Assembly (NCBI GenBank): GCA_002255585.1
Contig: NCBJ01000004.1
Span: 6,415 to 70,414 of the forward strand
DNA length: 64,000 bases
Source of the DNA: Parcubacteria group bacterium 21-54-25
GTDB taxonomy: Bacteria > Patescibacteriota > Minisyncoccia > Phycocordibacterales > Phycocordibacteraceae
Direction: 5' to 3'
The position numbers were made by a program, and so were the translations under genes. Every line of letters begins with the position of its first letter. The stretch's first letter is position 1. The notes below the pieces were generated by a model that made no database searches, was not told the origin of the DNA, and saw nothing but the letters and a program-made list of their open reading frames with translations. Shown here in pieces: positions 2,430 through 64,000 of the stretch.

Positions 2430-3641
2430 TTAAAATGCGTTTGCGAGATTGTAAATTGGCACGAGCACCGAGGCAAGCAAAACGCCGACCCCAACACCCA
2501 AGAGCACAATCATCATTGGCTCAATGAGGTCCACGAGCGTGTCTACTGCTGTCATAACTTCTCGTGAGTAGAACTTTGAAAGCGTCGTGAGAATGCTGCC
2601 GAGCTCGCCGGTTTCCTCGCCCACCTTAATCATGGCAGTCATGATGCCTGGTATGACTTCTGGGTGTGCGGCAAGCGCCGCTGAAATAGTCGAGCCGCCG
2701 CGCACCGCATCGCGCGTCTGGTGGAGAACGTCCTGGTACACGGCGTTGTCGATAACATTTGCGGTAATGTCGATGACGTCCACGACCGGCACGCCGGAGA
2801 GCAGCATGGTTGATAAGTTGTCCGCGATGCGCGACAAATAGAGCTTTTGATACAGGTCACCCAGGTAGGGCAGCGAGATCTTGAAATGATCATACGCATA
2901 ACGCCCGTGGCTCGTCCGCAGCGAACGCCAGCCGAGAATGCCGCCACCAATAAGCACGATGAGTGCAAGAAGGCCGTAGTGAATGAGGAAGTTCGAGAGG
3001 TTGAGGATGATTTGTGTGTACACTGGAATTGGCTGGCCAGAGTCCACAAGAATGGCGCTCACGCGCGGAATGACGAATGTGAGCATGAGTATCATAACCG
3101 CAAAGAACGTAAAAATAACGAACGCAGGATATATGAGTGCGTTTTGCGCCTTGCTCACGAGCGCATAGGTGCGGTCGAGATAATCGGCGAGATAATTGAA
3201 GGTGTCGGAAAGCTTGCCGGATTCCTCACCGGCGCGCACCATGTTTACGTAAAACGTGCTAAATACCTTCGGATGTCGCGCGAGTGCCTGCGAAATGGCA
3301 CTCCCCCCCTGCAAATCGTCTGCAACCTTGGTCAAAATGTCGGCAAGAAGTTTGTTGTCCATCTCGCTTGCGAGGAGTCGGAATACGCGAAGCGCTGAAA
3401 CCTGCGCGGTAAAAAGTGTCGAGATCTGCCGCGAGAGAATAACGACCTCCTTATTGGACACGTGCTGAAAAATAGCGATGTCGGCAGTAAGAAGCGACCC
3501 CTTCTTCTTCGTAGGCTCAATCGAAGAAATGATGAGTTCGCGGCGCTGCAGCGCGGAAACGGCCACGTCCATCGAGAGCGCGTCTATGGTGCCTTCGCGT
3601 TCGTGGCCGTCTTTATCGAGTGCGTGATAGGTAAAAAGCAT
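2430..3641 (-). CDS. pilC: Type IV pilus assembly platform protein PilC (GspF family)
   Basis: 403 aa polytopic membrane protein with duplicated T2SS-F-type domains. Sits between the pilin and pilT. Confidence 0.85.
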   Translation of the reverse strand: MLFTYHALDKDGHEREGTIDALSMDVAVSALQRRELIISSIEPTKKKGSLLTADIAIFQHVSNKEVVILSRQISTLFTAQVSALRVFRLLASEMDNKLLADILTKVADDLQGGSAISQALARHPKVFSTFYVNMVRAGEESGKLSDTFNYLADYLDRTYALVSKAQNALIYPAFVIFTFFAVMILMLTFVIPRVSAILVDSGQPIPVYTQIILNLSNFLIHYGLLALIVLIGGGILGWRSLRTSHGRYAYDHFKISLPYLGDLYQKLYLSRIADNLSTMLLSGVPVVDVIDITANVIDNAVYQDVLHQTRDAVRGGSTISAALAAHPEVIPGIMTAMIKVGEETGELGSILTTLSKFYSREVMTAVDTLVDLIEPMMIVLLGVGVGVLLASVLVPIYNLANAF

Positions 3642-3658
3642 AGAAAGCGAGAGGTCTA

Positions 3659-4723
3659 CTATAGGTACCGCTCAAAGGTTTTTGGATCGAAGGCGTGCTC
3701 GTATGCGTGCTCAACGGTAACTTCGCCGCGGCGCACGAGTTCGGCCAGCGTGCGATCCATGTCAATCATCCCGTCCTGTGAGGAGGTTTGAATAATCGTG
3801 GGTATTTCGCTCGTGCGGCCCTCGCGAATGAGGTTTGCTACCGCGCTGTTGTTGAGCAGGAGTTCATAGGCCGGTATGAGACCGCCGGCGATGCGCGGCA
3901 CCAATCGCTGAGAAAAAATACCTGCGAGTGAACCGGCAAGCTGCATACCCACCTGCTTTTGTTGGCTTGCAGGAAACATGTCTATGATACGGTCGATGGT
4001 CTGCGCCGCATTGTTGGTGTGTAGGGTTGAAAGAACAAGATGGCCAGTTTCCGCAGCCGTGACTGCCGAAGCGACGGTTTCGGGATCGCGCATTTCACCT
4101 ACCATAATCACGTTTACGTCTTCTCGAAATGCTGCTTGAAGTGCCGAGTGAAAATTTGGTGCATCCACATACACTTCACGTTGGTGGATGAGCGATTTCC
4201 CCTGCTCAAAAAGATACTCGATCGGATCTTCGATAGTCACAATGTGATCGGTGCGTGTTTTGTTTATGCGGTCGATAATAGCGGCAAGTGTGGTGGACTT
4301 CCCTTGTCCCACCGGCCCCACCACCAAAAAGAAGCCCTGTGCGTGCTGGGTAAAAACATCGAGTACGGGCGGCAGACTGAGATCGGCAAAGGTGCGAATT
4401 TCGCGCGGAATAAGGCGCAGTGCGATGGCTACCGCCCCCTGCACGACGTAGCCATTGATACGAAAACGACCCTGATCTTTGTGCGCGTAGGAAAAGTCGA
4501 CTGATTGGTTCTTCTCAAACGTCTCCCAGCGTGACTCGGGCAAAATGCTCTTGAGCATTGTCTCTGTGTCGCTTGATGAAAGTACGGGCTGCTGCGTCAG
4601 CGGGATAAGCGAGCCGGTCATGCGAATAATCGGGCGCTGCCCGGCGGTAATATGCAAGTCTGAACCGCCTTCTGCGATAACAATGTCGAGTAAATCAGTA
4701 ATGTGTGATGTGGTGGGGCTCAT
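3659..4723 (-). CDS. pilT: Twitching motility ATPase PilT
   Basis: 354 aa. Walker A (VVGPVGQGKSTTLAAIID) and a PilT-type secretion ATPase core. ATG at 4723 verified. Confidence 0.85.
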   Translation of the reverse strand: MSPTTSHITDLLDIVIAEGGSDLHITAGQRPIIRMTGSLIPLTQQPVLSSSDTETMLKSILPESRWETFEKNQSVDFSYAHKDQGRFRINGYVVQGAVAIALRLIPREIRTFADLSLPPVLDVFTQHAQGFFLVVGPVGQGKSTTLAAIIDRINKTRTDHIVTIEDPIEYLFEQGKSLIHQREVYVDAPNFHSALQAAFREDVNVIMVGEMRDPETVASAVTAAETGHLVLSTLHTNNAAQTIDRIIDMFPASQQKQVGMQLAGSLAGIFSQRLVPRIAGGLIPAYELLLNNSAVANLIREGRTSEIPTIIQTSSQDGMIDMDRTLAELVRRGEVTVEHAYEHAFDPKTFERYL

Positions 4724-59568: not shown

Positions 59569-61524
59569 CTATGCAGCGACGACAGTCTTCTCTTCCTCTT
59601 CTTTTTTCTTTGGGGTAATGCCGTTTGCAATAAGCAGTTTCTCAAAATCATCGCGTTCGAGTGTCTCAACCTCGATAAGTCTTCCAGAAATCGCATCGAG
59701 TGCCCCACGATGCTTCTCAAGCAGTTTGTGGGCGCGGGTCTTCCCTTCCTCTATCATGCGAGAAATCTCTGCGTCGATTTTTGCCGCGACTTCCTGCGAA
59801 TACGGTTCGTGTATTGGCGGTGCTGACGTACGTTCTCCGGCAAAGGCAACCGGACCGAGCGCAGCACTCATGCCGTAGCGCACCACCATATCGCGCGCAA
59901 GCGCCGTCGCGACCGCTAAATCATTATGCGGACCGGTCGTTACATCATTGAAAATCATCTCTTCCGCAGCAAAACCACCGAGCGTTGAGGCAATGTCATC
60001 GAGAAACTCTTTTTTGCTCTGCATCTTTTTGTCTTCGAAAGGCAGCTTGAGCGTGTACCCGGCAGCGCGGCCACGGCTGATGATGGAAATTTTATGCACC
60101 GGGTCGGCATACGGCAACACCGAAGAAACGAGCGCGTGGCCTGCTTCATGGTAGGCCGTAATCTTTTTTTCTTTCGCTGAAAGCATGTGGCTCTTGCGCT
60201 CCGGACCGAGCATGACTTTTTCGATTGAGCGAATGAGATCATATTGGGTTACCTCCGTGCGACTTTCGCGCGCGGCAAGGATGGCGGCCTCATTCATGAG
60301 CGAATAGAGCTCTGCGCCAGAAAATCCTGGCGTTCGTTCGGCAATAACAGTGAGGTCTACATCGGGACCAAGTGGTTTTTTGCGCGCGTGAATCATGAGG
60401 ATTTCCTCGCGATCGCGCCGGTCTGGCAAGTCAATAACAACACGTCGGTCGAAACGACCGGGACGCAAAAGCGCCGGGTCAAGCACGTCCGGACGGTTAG
60501 AAGCCGCCATGACAATCACTTTTTCAGTCGGCTCGAAGCCATCCATCTCAACAAGTATTTGGTTCAGAGTCTGTTCGCGCTCGTCGTTGCCACCACCCAC
60601 GCCACTGCCACGCACGCGTCCAACCGCATCAATCTCATCGACAAAAATAATCGCGGGCGCTGCGCGCTTTGCCATTTGAAAAAGGTCACGCACGCGACTC
60701 GCCCCCACACCGACAAACATTTCTACAAATTCCGAACCAGAAATAGAAAAGAATGGCACGCCCGCCTCACCGGCGACTGCGCGCGCAAGAAGTGTCTTAC
60801 CAGTACCTGGCGCACCCATGAGGAGAATCCCTTTGGGAATGCGCGCACCGATATCAAGAAATTTCTTTGGATTTTTTAGAAAGTCGACAATCTCAACCAG
60901 TTCTTCCTTTGCTTCGCGGGCACCAGCAACGTCAGCAAACGTAACGCGCTGGGTGGTGTCGGCCGGGTCAGTCATACGTGCCTTTGATTGACCGAAAGAA
61001 AAGGCCTGCATACCAGCCCCTTTTACTTGGCGCGACAAGAACCAGAACAACAGCGCGAAAAACAAAAACGACAAGAGTACCGGGGCAAGCGTGGTGAGCC
61101 AGAAGTACCAACCAGACTCTCCTTCTATCGTGATAGCCGTTTTCGAAAGCTCGGTGGGCGTTACCCCGTAGGCGGTGAGTGTTTGCGCGAGCGCGGCAGC
61201 CGGATCTTTGCGTGAGGTACGCACCGTACCGTCGGTATACGTCAAATTCAGCCTGTCGCCCGAGACTTTTATTGCGGCCACCTTACCGGCAGAGACGTCT
61301 TGCGCAACCTGCGAGAGTGGAATGTCTTGTATCTTGGTCCCCGGCGAAGAAAAGAGAGTATACAAGCTCATGAGGAGCAGGAAAATGAGGATGGTTGAAA
61401 TGAGGTTGCCCGTGAACGAGGAGCCGAACTTCGGAAAGCGCGGTGGCTTTATCCCTGGTTTTTGTTTTTTGCCGCTGCCGCTGCGTGTAGAGCGACGCGC
61501 AAGACGTGGACGCGGGGTAGGCAT
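59569..61524 (-). CDS. ftsH: ATP-dependent zinc metalloprotease FtsH
   Basis: 651 aa. Two N-terminal TM helices; AAA+ module ([26 protein letters not shown]); zinc protease HEAGHA motif. Confidence 0.95.
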
Positions 61525-61621
61525 GATAATTCAAACTATAGCACACCCACACGCTAAATCACGCGTCGGCCCTTTGCTGCCGCCGCGCACACGTGCCACG
61601 CGGACGGGGTATACTCTCACC

Positions 61622-62068
61622 ATGTCGCTTATCGAGTATAAAAAGGCGGGACTGCGGTACGAAACGCTTGAAACCTTCGAGGCGGGCGTGGAACTCACGG
61701 GTGTGGAAGTGAAGGCGCTCCGCAAAAAAATGGGCTCACTCGACGGTGCGCGCGTGGTGGTGCGCGGTGGCGAAGCGTTTATTAGTGGTATGACCATTCC
61801 GCCCTACCAAGCCGCAAACACCCCTAAAGGTTACGACCCCGAACGAGCGCGACGACTCCTTCTCACCAAACGCGAAATAGCAGAGCTCGCCGGGGCTGAC
61901 GCGAAAAAAGGTTTGACACTAGTGCCACTTTCAATGTATAATGCGCACAGATTAATCAAGGCGAAAATCGCAATCGTGCGCGGCAAAGGCAAGGCCGACA
62001 AGCGAGAAGATTTAAAAAAGCGCGAGGCGGCACGTGAAGCCGAGCGCGCCTTGAAAGGAAACCGGTAG
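61622..62068 (+). CDS. smpB: SsrA-binding protein
   Basis: 148 aa from the ATG at 61622 (MSLIEYKKAGLRYETLETFEAGVELTGVEVKALR...), a canonical SmpB fold sequence. Immediately upstream of tmRNA. Confidence 0.9.
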   Translation: MSLIEYKKAGLRYETLETFEAGVELTGVEVKALRKKMGSLDGARVVVRGGEAFISGMTIPPYQAANTPKGYDPERARRLLLTKREIAELAGADAKKGLTLVPLSMYNAHRLIKAKIAIVRGKGKADKREDLKKREAAREAERALKGNR

Positions 62069-62111
62069 TCCCGACGTCGGCATAAGCACTCCTGTTGCTT
62101 GTGCCGACATC

Positions 62112-62521
62112 GGGGGTGACCGGCTTTGACGGTCTGTACCTTGAGAATGCGCGACGCGGTGCACGCTCACTTACCACCTAAAACTAGTGAGCACCTAAAC
62201 GTGCCAAGAAATCTCTTGCACGCGCAGTGTCGCCATACTTCGGTATGAACGACTTTGCGTTCGCGGCAGTGACGGCTCGAGCGTAAGCTCGCCTCGCTCT
62301 CGCGACGTCTCCCTACCTTGCGTTTGCAGGGGGTAGTCGAGGCGGAATGTACTGCATACTCGACGTGCGCGCGCCCACGCGTACTGTCTAAATTTTGGGA
62401 TCCGACAGGAGTGATTTTGTTTCAGTTCCTCGCACCCTGTCCTAGCTTCAACTGAAACTACGCGTCGTAGAAGCACCTCATGGTCCGGATTCGGACGGGA
62501 GTTCGATTCTCCCCACCTCCA
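62112..62521 (+). ncRNA. ssrA: tmRNA (ssrA)
   Basis: 5' end GGGGGUGACCGGCUUUGACGG. 3' end GGACGGGAGUUCGAUUCUCCCCACCUCCA, i.e. T-arm plus acceptor with the G3-U70 Ala identity pair. CCA not encoded. A candidate tag reading frame ends at TAA 62284-62286 (...NDFAFAAVTARA); the resume codon is uncertain. Confidence 0.8.
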
Positions 62522-64000
62522 CATCTTGTGAATTCTTGGTAGCAAACTGCTCAAAAAGGCCGATAAATGGCGACTTTAGCGCGGTTTCAAATCCAAACTT
62601 TGGATGGAATGCCAATCGTTCCGCAAAGAGTAGTTTTAGAACTACTCTTTTTGCGTTTATGTCTCGCTTTTCCCAGATAACTAGCGGGTTTTCTAGGAAG
62701 TTGAGTACGACCTCTAGTGCGGTTTCAAAACTCACGGATGAGACGCCCAGCCCTTTCATCCGCTCTTGCAAGAGATCGCCTTCGCTTCGGTATTTCGCGA
62801 TCTGTTCCTCGTATGCGCTGATCACCCTTTCGTCTACCGCCTTCACGACACGTCCAGCGAGAACATCCACCTGACGCCGCGTTTCCTTCAGCTTCGTCTC
62901 CAAGGATCTTTGTTGCTGCTCAAGAGAACCCACCTTGTGTTCCCACAATTCCAGAACTACGGCTTTAGCGAGACGAATGGCCCCGGGCTTCGGGTAGATG
63001 GACTGGAGGAGTTTTACAAATTCTGCATCGACAAAGTCTCCGCTCACGCTTTTATTGAATCGAACGCAGGATGGGCTCTTGCAGCGATAGAAACGGTACA
63101 TCTTTGATCTGCCTCTCGACCAGCTTGCGGTGAGTGCGCCTTGGCAGAATGGGCACAGGAGGAATCCGCGAAGCGCGAAGTCGAGCGAATCACTTTTCCG
63201 CACAGCCACCCTGCACTTCCCATCCAGTTTTCCCTGCACTTTTTGGAATGTCTCGAGAGAAATGATCGCTTCATGTTGCCCTTTTCTTCTCGAAACTTCC
63301 CACTCCTCACGCTCGACGTATCCCGCGTACACAACTCGTCGAAGAAGACGTCTAACGCCTTCTTGGTAAATCGGTCCGTTGCTGTAGTCTGTAGCACGCA
63401 AGAATTTAACCACGTCCGCCTGCGACAAAAACTTGCCAGAGGCAAATCCTTCAAACACTTCTCTAATGAGGCTGGCCTGCGGTTCATGGGGTTGAAGTAT
63501 CTTCCCATGCGCCGGATCCTTGACCTGCTTGTATCCGGGCGGCGGATAGTGCGGCCAGTACCCTTTCTCTAGGCGAGCTTTCATTTTCTGAATTACCTGG
63601 CGTCTGTTGTTCTTGCGATGGTATTGATTTTGCAACGCCACCATTCCCTCGAACATCTCTCCTTCCGGCGAATCGTCGAAGTTGAAATTCAAACAGAGTG
63701 GTTTAATTCCTCTAGTCTCGAAGGCCTGTCTTAATTTGAAATGAAAAATAACGTCCCTAGCAAACCGGCTCAAATCGTCAAAAATAACCACGTAGTTTCT
63801 ATGGGGATGATTATCTGCATGAGCAAGTAGCCTTTGCATAGCAGGCCTCAGCATAAAATCGCCGCCGCCGGTGAAACTATCTCTAAAGACTTCCTCTACC
63901 TCGTAGCCGTTGGATCTAGCGAACTCTCGGCATCGGTGTTCTTGGCTGTCGAGTCCGTGCCCTTTGACCTGACCCCCAAATTTCAGACCACTCTCTAGAC
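62478..64000 (-). CDS. Large serine recombinase (resolvase/integrase), N-terminus beyond window end
   Basis: The reading frame stays open to position 64000. Upstream in-frame translation gives ...GQVKGHGLDSQEHRCREFARSNGYEVEEVFRDSFTGGGDFMLRPAMQRLL...VVIFDDLSRFARD (resolvase catalytic domain). It is followed by the recombinase domain, a zinc ribbon (CPFCQG...CKSPSC) and a coiled-coil. Its 3' end overlaps the tmRNA 3' end by 44 nt. Confidence 0.8.
   Translation of the reverse strand, partial: LESGLKFGGQVKGHGLDSQEHRCREFARSNGYEVEEVFRDSFTGGGDFMLRPAMQRLLAHADNHPHRNYVVIFDDLSRFARDVIFHFKLRQAFETRGIKPLCLNFNFDDSPEGEMFEGMVALQNQYHRKNNRRQVIQKMKARLEKGYWPHYPPPGYKQVKDPAHGKILQPHEPQASLIREVFEGFASGKFLSQADVVKFLRATDYSNGPIYQEGVRRLLRRVVYAGYVEREEWEVSRRKGQHEAIISLETFQKVQGKLDGKCRVAVRKSDSLDFALRGFLLCPFCQGALTASWSRGRSKMYRFYRCKSPSCVRFNKSVSGDFVDAEFVKLLQSIYPKPGAIRLAKAVVLELWEHKVGSLEQQQRSLETKLKETRRQVDVLAGRVVKAVDERVISAYEEQIAKYRSEGDLLQERMKGLGVSSVSFETALEVVLNFLENPLVIWEKRDINAKRVVLKLLFAERLAFHPKFGFETALKSPFIGLFEQFATKNSQDVEVGRIELPSESGP

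Follow-up and report, generated by a model that had tools for sequence, protein, structure and literature searches.

A large serine recombinase gene at the 3' end of the tmRNA gene in a Parcubacteria genome and its relatives at tRNA and tmRNA gene termini

The stretch of DNA analyzed here (the window) comprises 64,000 nucleotides of contig NCBJ01000004.1 (positions 6,415 to 70,414 of the forward strand) from Parcubacteria group bacterium 21-54-25 (GCA_002255585.1), a metagenome-assembled genome (MAG) of the Patescibacteria. Sequence comparison indicates that the window probably ends on the left attachment junction (attL) between the host tmRNA gene ssrA and a small integrative element with a serine integrase. 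There, ssrA converges on the gene of a large serine recombinase (LSR), and their adjacency is real and far beyond chance. The gene order FtsH-SmpB-tmRNA-LSR recurs in independent samples with different cargo, and the ends of the element are identifiable in relatives. This bears out a preliminary description of the window, made from its letters alone, which had proposed an element integrated at the 3' end of ssrA. The same description had named a serine rather than a tyrosine integrase, and both the Resolvase and the Recombinase domains match. An intact tmRNA gene adjoins the integrase gene in the window, as in islands integrated at tRNA or tmRNA genes (tDNAs). Four relatives (L002, L086, L030, and L107) carry a displaced 3' fragment of the tDNA at the far end of the element. 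In relatives, too, the cargo differs between related hosts.

The tmRNA gene is complete on the plus strand (62112-62521/62524; ARAGORN and Rfam RF00023). It matches positions 1-374, the full length of the RF00023 model, with 77.3 bits against a gathering score of 47. The acceptor stem GGGGGTG/CACCTCC closes across the whole gene and retains the G3:U70 pair. Position 62521 is the discriminator A, and the gene does not encode the CCA end. The gene has a tRNA-Ala-like domain (G3:U70 and T-arm), a tag reading frame with a resume codon, and an adjacent smpB, the gene of the host partner of tmRNA. The smpB gene (61622-62068, plus strand) is also intact and matches positions 3-142 of 143 of PF01668 (E 1.3e-42); the exact SmpB protein of the window is found on contig DAOMBW010000003.1 (GCA_035427565.1) as well. 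These end-to-end matches support the earlier statement that smpB and ssrA are intact, and both RF00023 and ARAGORN place the 3' boundary of the tmRNA gene, on which the proposed overlap depends, at 62521/62524.

The body of the LSR gene lies on the minus strand at 62523-64000. Its product matches Resolvase (PF00239, E 3.9e-19, profile positions 13-144 of 145) and Recombinase (PF07508, E 1.3e-8), two of the domains first read from the translation. The third, a zinc ribbon, scores slightly below its cut-off (Zn_ribbon_recom PF13408, 23 bits against 25.3 bits), yet its cysteines C282, C285, C306, and C311 are invariant in the family alignment. A charged, heptad-like stretch in the translation (residues ~340-420) may be the coiled-coil insertion of the zinc-ribbon domain. 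The protein is 72% identical to its closest homolog among the matches listed. The stop codon of the open reading frame (ORF) lies at 62478-62480, and the overlap with the tmRNA gene is exactly 44 nt, as had been described. The final 14 codons (VEVGRIELPSESGP) lie antisense to the acceptor strand and T-arm of the tmRNA. C-termini across the family vary with the neighboring tDNA, and free forms of the elements carry different tails. By this comparison, the tail at 62478-62517 (..VGRIELPSESGP*, minus strand, antisense of the T-arm) is a by-product of integration and not a conserved protein. The overlap is real but would be an integration scar rather than a feature of an intact gene: it would represent read-through into host ssrA because the LSR gene has the attachment site of the element (attP) at or within its 3' end. 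The G+C content is ~0.55-0.57 in the smpB/ssrA region and only 0.49-0.51 in the LSR gene (window positions 62250-64000), a drop that is consistent with a foreign origin of the LSR region.

Contig ends of MAGs are error-prone, and both the tDNA 3' end and the 5' stretch of the LSR gene are repeat-like across the community. An assembler could have joined ssrA and the LSR gene chimerically through the conserved tmRNA 3' end. We regard such an artifact as highly improbable, since two assemblies agree, independent samples show the junction with their own tmRNA sequences, and the acceptor stem pairs perfectly across the junction.

The arrangement in the window recurs throughout a family of LSRs. A protein search returned 1005 LSR matches at E<=1e-10; the best 120 of these show 44-72% identity and are typically ~520 amino acids (aa) long. 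Eighty homologous genome loci were fetched for neighborhood analysis. By ARAGORN, 59 carry a tRNA or tmRNA gene that converges on the LSR gene and has its 3' end within the LSR ORF. Rfam adds six tmRNAs missed by ARAGORN, so that the LSR runs antisense into a tmRNA or tRNA 3' end at no fewer than 65 of the 80 loci. T-arm motifs are seen at nine loci beyond the 59 (L004, L006, L010, L011, L014, L030, L040, L045, and L048), four of which are cut by a contig end (L004, L010, L014, and L040) and four of which are Rfam detections. An apparent conservation of the LSR C-terminus, SQDVE(M/V)GGIEPP..., is the antisense of the tDNA acceptor and T-arms. The hosts include Patescibacteria, Rhodobacterales, Gammaproteobacteria, Bdellovibrionales, and others. 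The targets are tmRNA and the tRNAs for Ala (three anticodons), Met, Tyr, Thr, Arg, Leu, and Ser. Target type tracks LSR clades in a neighbor-joining tree, which places the window LSR in a tmRNA clade with L002, L003, L005, L006, L009, and L041. The closest relatives among the matches listed (70-72% identity) have the same FtsH-SmpB-tmRNA-LSR synteny in independent samples. The repetition of this order in several Parcubacteria contigs might be taken to mean that the LSR is a domesticated, vertically inherited neighbor of ssrA with a host function, for instance in tmRNA regulation. We give this idea almost no credence: the family adjoins eight kinds of tRNA or tmRNA genes in Proteobacteria, Bdellovibrionales, and other groups, LSRs occur on circular extrachromosomal contigs, integration has left attL and attR signatures, and the cargo beside the LSR varies in closely related hosts.

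Phage and plasmid collections yielded no member of the family, and the best identity to phage LSRs is 21-26%. PDB sequence matches are confined to catalytic-domain fragments (TP901-1 integrase and a resolvase-family protein). The NCBIfam equivalog models for LSRs (XisF and CcrB/C) score far under their cut-offs. A scan of IMG/VR yielded three loci only. One of these is the viral contig L082, where (3100-4350) an LSR ORF ends on a 20-nt tRNA 3' fragment without the remaining tRNA and a tyrosine-recombinase-like gene ends ~60 nt from the other side of the fragment. L082 was considered as an attP-like form and set aside, as the tyrosine integrase gene ending beside the tRNA fragment makes a tandem array likelier; two different integrases are probably using one tRNA site in tandem. 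A separate observation concerns tRNA gene finding. ARAGORN misses eight Patescibacteria tmRNAs that Rfam detects at 73-120 bits (L006, L009, L011, L017, L030, L045, L086, and L088).

The relation between free and integrated forms is visible in sister clades of the window LSR. Three LSR proteins (P0043, P0107, and P0111) end in a conserved tail, V(D/H)(I/L/M)..SWN(Q/H)(I/L)....(I/V)F(E/D).., which is not tDNA antisense. P0043 is encoded by an uninterrupted gene on the 12.3-kb contig L089, which has a 55-nt terminal overlap and carries Prim-Pol/AAA_25 and ParB genes. P0111 is encoded by an uninterrupted gene on the 4.2-kb contig L091, which has a 77-nt terminal overlap. Neither contig carries a tDNA, and we read both as circular free forms from these features. 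At six integrated loci (L013, L016, L018, L021, L031, and L050) the coding sequence of the same SWNQ tail lies upstream on the LSR strand. The distance from the tDNA junction is 5.0-6.3 kb at the five loci where both junctions are mapped. This distal tail is immediately preceded by GTGGAC and a rho-independent-type hairpin of the host. At L018, the LSR body (499 aa) and the distal tail (28 aa) add up to 527 aa and align from 1 to 527 with contiguous P0107 at 86.9% identity. The int gene of this sister clade is split by integration, body plus attR tail equaling the contiguous protein, and as judged from the alignment, attP is made of one half of attL and one half of attR.

Across attL, attR, and attP of the six integrated and two circular relatives, GTGGA(C) is the only common sequence, and it is the antisense of the tDNA terminus (G/C)TCCAC. 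On this evidence, the LSR gene of the sister clades contains attP, and integration moves the native terminator of the tDNA to attR; the simplest place for the crossover would be the CC/GG of the GTGGA(C) core. A crossover at the CG of the T-loop, with the element rebuilding the tDNA 3' end, had been considered from direct repeats of 15-20 nt. It was rejected, at least for the sister clades, since the circular forms and the SWNQ junctions share GTGGA(C) alone, and the longer direct repeats are treated as a property of a second junction type.

Two observations on individual loci belong here. The core of L091 (~3460-3470) is inverted relative to the LSR gene, reading GTCCAC rather than GTGGAC, and would therefore predict the opposite orientation of integration for a serine integrase. 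L013 (5397-5415 vs. 5579) and L018 (5623 and 4753 vs. 5784) each have two kinds of distal junctions. One kind consists of a 19-20 nt tDNA 3' fragment followed by conserved CGGTCACGA..., and the other consists of the GTGGAC core followed by the LSR tail. The tDNA-fragment junction lies 160-180 nt outside the GTGGAC-tail junction in both loci, and a third tDNA fragment lies another 0.9 kb out in L018. These double junctions are likely to be tandem or relic integrations.

We propose that LSRs of this family recombine an attP at, or within, the 3' end of their own gene with a host site (attB) whose center is the TCCAC that ends a tRNA or tmRNA gene and comprises its last acceptor-stem bases and the discriminator. 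The RNA gene would stay essentially host-encoded after integration, and its native terminator would end up beyond the opposite end of the element. The integrase ORF would become convergent with the RNA gene and read through its antisense, which would produce the 44-nt overlap seen in the window. In the clade of the window LSR, the element would also bring a replacement terminator for ssrA, placed antisense within the integrase coding sequence. In the source genome, an attR-type junction would be expected upstream, in which the host terminator is followed by GTGGAG(GTGGGGAGAATCG) and then GTCAC...

By analogy with the sister clades, the recombination core in the window is predicted at 62518-62522 (TCCAC, or GTGGA on the LSR strand), with host DNA on its left and element DNA on its right. 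The far-end junctions of L002, L086, L030, and L107, all relatives within the window's clade, consist of host flank, 10-20 nt of the tmRNA 3' end, and a conserved element end CGG(T/A)CAC(A/G).. The host flank carries a terminator in L107 and a hairpin in L002. As the identity between attP and attB in this clade spans 10-20 nt, the crossover is bounded only to 62502-62522, and TCCAC at 62518-62522 is favored by the same analogy. The preliminary description had relied on a direct repeat of the tmRNA 3' end as a test for the element. This holds for relatives in the window's clade, where the repeat is 10-20 nt; sister clades share only a 5-6 nt core. In its free form, the LSR of the window's clade would end a few codons after DVE, to judge from sequences such as ..VEVEGIGHR* in L002. 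The tmRNA 3' end has no second copy within the 64 kb, where the only matches are 13-nt stretches shared with tRNA T-arms. A metagenome scan with the element-end motif gave 63 matches, among which L107 alone is genuine.

Delimited relatives of the window's clade measure 8-11 kb, and the clade's elements carry defense-type cargo (restriction-modification and toxin-type genes), a conserved ORF of ~57 aa, and a LOOT RNA. L002 carries a type III restriction-modification system, a HARE-HTH/PD-(D/E)XK protein, and a nucleotidyltransferase. The cargo of L086 consists of a type III restriction-modification system, an M78 peptidase/HTH protein, and an Ltp lipoprotein; that of L087 includes a type I HsdR; and that of L088 comprises HigB, an M78/HTH protein, and a P4-cII-like protein. 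Related hosts have in common the ssrA side, the LSR gene, and ~380 nt upstream of it, and nothing beyond. Directly upstream of the LSR gene lies the ~57-aa ORF (..ECR..LG.D...SD.Q...FRDALY...E.VLD..), which is co-oriented with the LSR gene, overlaps its start, and is apparently coupled to it. It is present at 15 of 25 Patescibacteria loci (L087 5268-5441, L088 9820-9993, L002 9784-9948, L041 9777-9932, and 11 more) and has no match in Pfam, PHROGs, or NCBIfam. One may speculate that it is a candidate accessory or directionality factor. Its final codons (..VC*, TGTTAAC) stand at the very end of the contig just past the window (L085 1-33), and the element therefore continues at least slightly further.

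LOOT RNA (Rfam RF03000, 121 nt, 52-92 bits) lies inside the elements at ten or more loci, including the free circle L089. The positions are L002 8880-8998, L041 8752-8883, L086 4044-4165, L087 4235-4359, L089 4858-4978, L030 8327-8447, L017 9113-9234, L022 8769-8879 and 16290-16410, L016 7418-7530, and L009 5621-5752. It looks like a hallmark structured RNA of these LSR elements. The Rfam scan found no LOOT RNA in the window, and the literature searched gave no function for it. Two further features were noticed at these loci in passing. Small GIY-YIG nuclease genes lie beside targeted tDNAs or element ends in Patescibacteria (L086 11988-12263, L013 11506-11754, and L002 693-959), and the flank of the LSR locus L016 (2005-2264) contains a group I intron (RF00028, 54.8 bits).

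A putative rho-independent-type terminator, hairpin plus T-run, was found by terminator scan on the plus strand at 62622-62660. The hairpin itself (62622-62655) has 11-14 bp, lies ~100 nt past the tmRNA 3' end, and is antisense within the LSR codons KRVVLKLLF. Folding predicts it in ten further members of this clade as well, with energies of -15 to -20 kcal/mol, and does not predict it in most of the members checked from the SWNQ-tail or other clades. Across the 11 sequences, 94.8% of cells pair and six pairs show compensatory double changes; for example, the amino-acid swaps L3V and V8L of the window preserve the stem. The observed values are matched by none of 500 shuffles, and pairing in slid controls is 36-48%. 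Because the native ssrA terminator is lost on integration, supplying a replacement would be a sensible function for the hairpin. It would also limit the stretch of convergent transcription to ~45 codons at the end of the integrase gene.

The 5' end of the LSR gene (63950-64000, minus strand) is degraded: the start region is deleted, the catalytic-serine motif is lost, and the frame is disturbed. Contig DAOMBW010000003.1 stops 19 nt past the window end and a contig of GCA_027311325.1 stops 42 nt past it, with the same sequence. Both assemblies have an in-frame TAA at window-equivalent positions 64005-64007, two codons past 64000. The frame had been thought to run on beyond the window; it is open for those two codons only. 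Upstream of 63854 there is no ATG, GTG, or TTG in the LSR frame. The N-termini of 20 homologs all read M..(A)L(I/V)Y(C/N)RVSSxRQ..EGHGLDSQEH, and the window copy joins the family only from GHGLDSQEH onward. In the DNA alignment, a deletion of ~29 nt removes the ATG and homologous sequence aligns on both sides of it. The region of the nucleophile motif contains substitutions and small indels, and the invariant ALIYCRVSSERQ is replaced. The Y-x-R-x-S motif reads (L/V/I)Y(C/N)RVSS in 20 of 20 aligned homologs; the window has SRLESG in frame and LISSREWSE after a frameshift. The terminus of an inserted insertion sequence was considered as the cause of this odd 5' end and discarded, as the window holds no second copy and homologs align on both sides of the deletion. 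From these alignments, the window LSR is a family member by descent that is probably inactive as assembled. With its start codon and catalytic serine lost, the element is probably unable to excise on its own.

Several points weigh against the interpretation of the window as the edge of an integrated element. With a defective 5' end of the integrase gene, the element may be an immobile remnant. The lesion lies exactly at the contig end, beside the most conserved DNA of the family, and an assembly join to a decayed second copy is possible. The attR junction and the cargo would lie beyond the ends of both assemblies; the preliminary description had placed the cargo just outside the window, and nothing is readable there, since the sequence ends 19-42 nt past it. 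The upstream 33-mer had no exact match in a scan of metagenomes, and no free circular form of the window's clade was recovered. The double junctions of L013 and L018 are only partly explained by tandem or relic integrations.

The main rival is that only a solitary, decaying recombinase is left, consisting of the integrase pseudogene and perhaps a few hundred bases, with no cargo. The deleted start codon, the nucleophile motif destroyed in two assemblies, and the contig end directly upstream are what such a remnant would show. We nevertheless consider it unlikely. Downstream of the lesion, an ORF of 490 codons has no stop, and only 2 of 127 LSR positions that are at least 95% conserved deviate, both conservatively; no family member does better. 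The conserved small ORF upstream still has its 3' end, and several kb of cargo accompany the LSR gene in every relative whose sequence is available. A contig break just upstream of the conserved module is typical of variable cargo or repeated elements. By the same sequence evidence, either the gene was inactivated very recently, or the assembly has linked the contig end to a decayed second copy by way of the family's most conserved DNA. We thus retain the integrated element as the preferred reading, with cargo presumably continuing beyond the contig end.

Two further features of ssrA complete the account of the window. A sigma-70-type promoter with 12 of 12 consensus positions (TTGACA-18-TATAAT, 61913-61942, plus strand) lies inside the 3' part of smpB, ~170 nt before ssrA. 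It is the sole promoter-like site in 61400-64000 and probably drives ssrA. The tag reading frame occupies 62203-62286 (plus strand), with the resume codon GCC at 62203-62205, 27 codons, and TAA at 62284-62286, as placed by the Rfam alignment. The resulting peptide is AKKSLARAVSPYFGMNDFAFAAVTARA. ARAGORN calls VPRNLLHAQCRHTSV in another frame, which we consider wrong because the AKKSLARAVSPYFGMNDFAFAAVTARA frame has both the Rfam resume codon and the core of the tags of relatives. The tags of related Parcubacteria tmRNAs (AKNTFAKAIRSPFMANDFALAFA, GKSSASPYFTANDFAFA, and ANNTVASAKNTVSPYFSKNSFNFAFASA) have in common with it the pattern A(K/N)..SPYF..(N/K)DF.FA (core ...SPYF..NDFAFA). The frame ending in ...FAFAAVTARA, which the preliminary description had proposed as worth verifying, is the one with which the resume codon and this core agree. 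The tag of the closest tmRNA (L005) ends in ...FAFASA. By DNA alignment the window tag is four residues longer, as the ancestral stop position is now ACG, and its own TAA falls in the loop of the following hairpin. Compared with its relatives, the ...ARA ending is unusual, yet it is a small variation.

Integration at tRNA and tmRNA genes is conventionally credited to tyrosine integrases, and Islander-type island finders are built on that assumption. The elements described here resemble tyrosine-integrase islands in their tDNA 3' target, the integrase gene at the tDNA-proximal end, a far end marked by a fragment of the tDNA 3' end (10-20 nt in the window's clade), and their small size with defense or accessory cargo. 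They differ in that the enzyme is an LSR and in that, in the sister clades, the core is 5-6 nt and element DNA does not restore the tDNA. Characterized LSRs (phiC31, Bxb1, TP901-1, phiFC1, A118/LI integrase, CcrB/C, and XisF) have the same domain order of resolvase, recombinase, and zinc ribbon, and sequence comparison suggests that our family may follow their short-core attP x attB logic. Those enzymes target protein-coding genes, whereas the family of the window targets tDNA termini and has its attP within or abutting its own ORF. Among tyrosine integrases, those of SSV1-type fuselloviruses and Mx8 IntP have attP within the int gene, and integration at a tRNA gene splits or remodels that gene. 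As in those systems, the integrated and free forms of the sister clades encode different integrase proteins. Here the enzyme is a serine recombinase, however, and the sister clades lose a SWNQ tail of ~30 aa while the window's clade apparently exchanges a few terminal codons.

According to the Islander paper, serine-family integrases are not known to target tDNAs (PMC4383910), and a 2026 provirus survey found that S-int proviruses favor coding sequences (PMC13626063). Individual cases have been reported: the phiRSM filamentous phages have a small resolvase/invertase-type integrase at tRNA-Ser (PMC4471427), Paracoccus phage vB_PamS_Pami6 has a serine recombinase at tRNA-Met (PMC6536676), and LSRs carried by 27 of 937 Prochlorococcus tycheposons or cryptic elements are mentioned in passing (bioRxiv 10.1101/2020.12.28.424599). 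These cases likewise link a serine recombinase to a tDNA site. The reports, which we compared by their descriptions only, differ in that they describe no multi-phylum LSR lineage, no ORF-tDNA overlap, and no in-gene attP. In the literature that we searched, which leaves out most subscription journals, neither the lineage nor the ORF-tDNA overlap nor an LSR gene with an internal attP is described. Family members may well be present, unremarked, in large island databases. With somewhat less than even confidence, we suggest that these LSRs form an undescribed multi-phylum lineage dedicated to tRNA and tmRNA 3' termini. In this lineage attP would lie in or against the integrase's own gene, integration would rewrite the C-terminus, and loss of the SWNQ tail might act as a directionality switch. 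The lineage would include a tmRNA clade with an antisense terminator, it would span circular replicons and defense islands of Patescibacteria, and LOOT RNA would be its hallmark.

For the window itself, the junction is real, the body of the element is unassembled, and the integrase looks inactive. If the wider proposal is true, an LSR lineage at tDNA ends would fill a blind spot in mobilome annotation, chiefly in the Patescibacteria, where mobile elements and genetic tools are scarce. Serine integrases are favored for genome engineering because their sites are short and they need no host factors, and the lineage would offer such enzymes with an attB in almost every bacterium. The orphan LOOT RNA would gain a genomic context. 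The family would also provide a natural case of an integrase gene that is remodeled by its own reaction and of a terminator that is dual-coded within an ORF.

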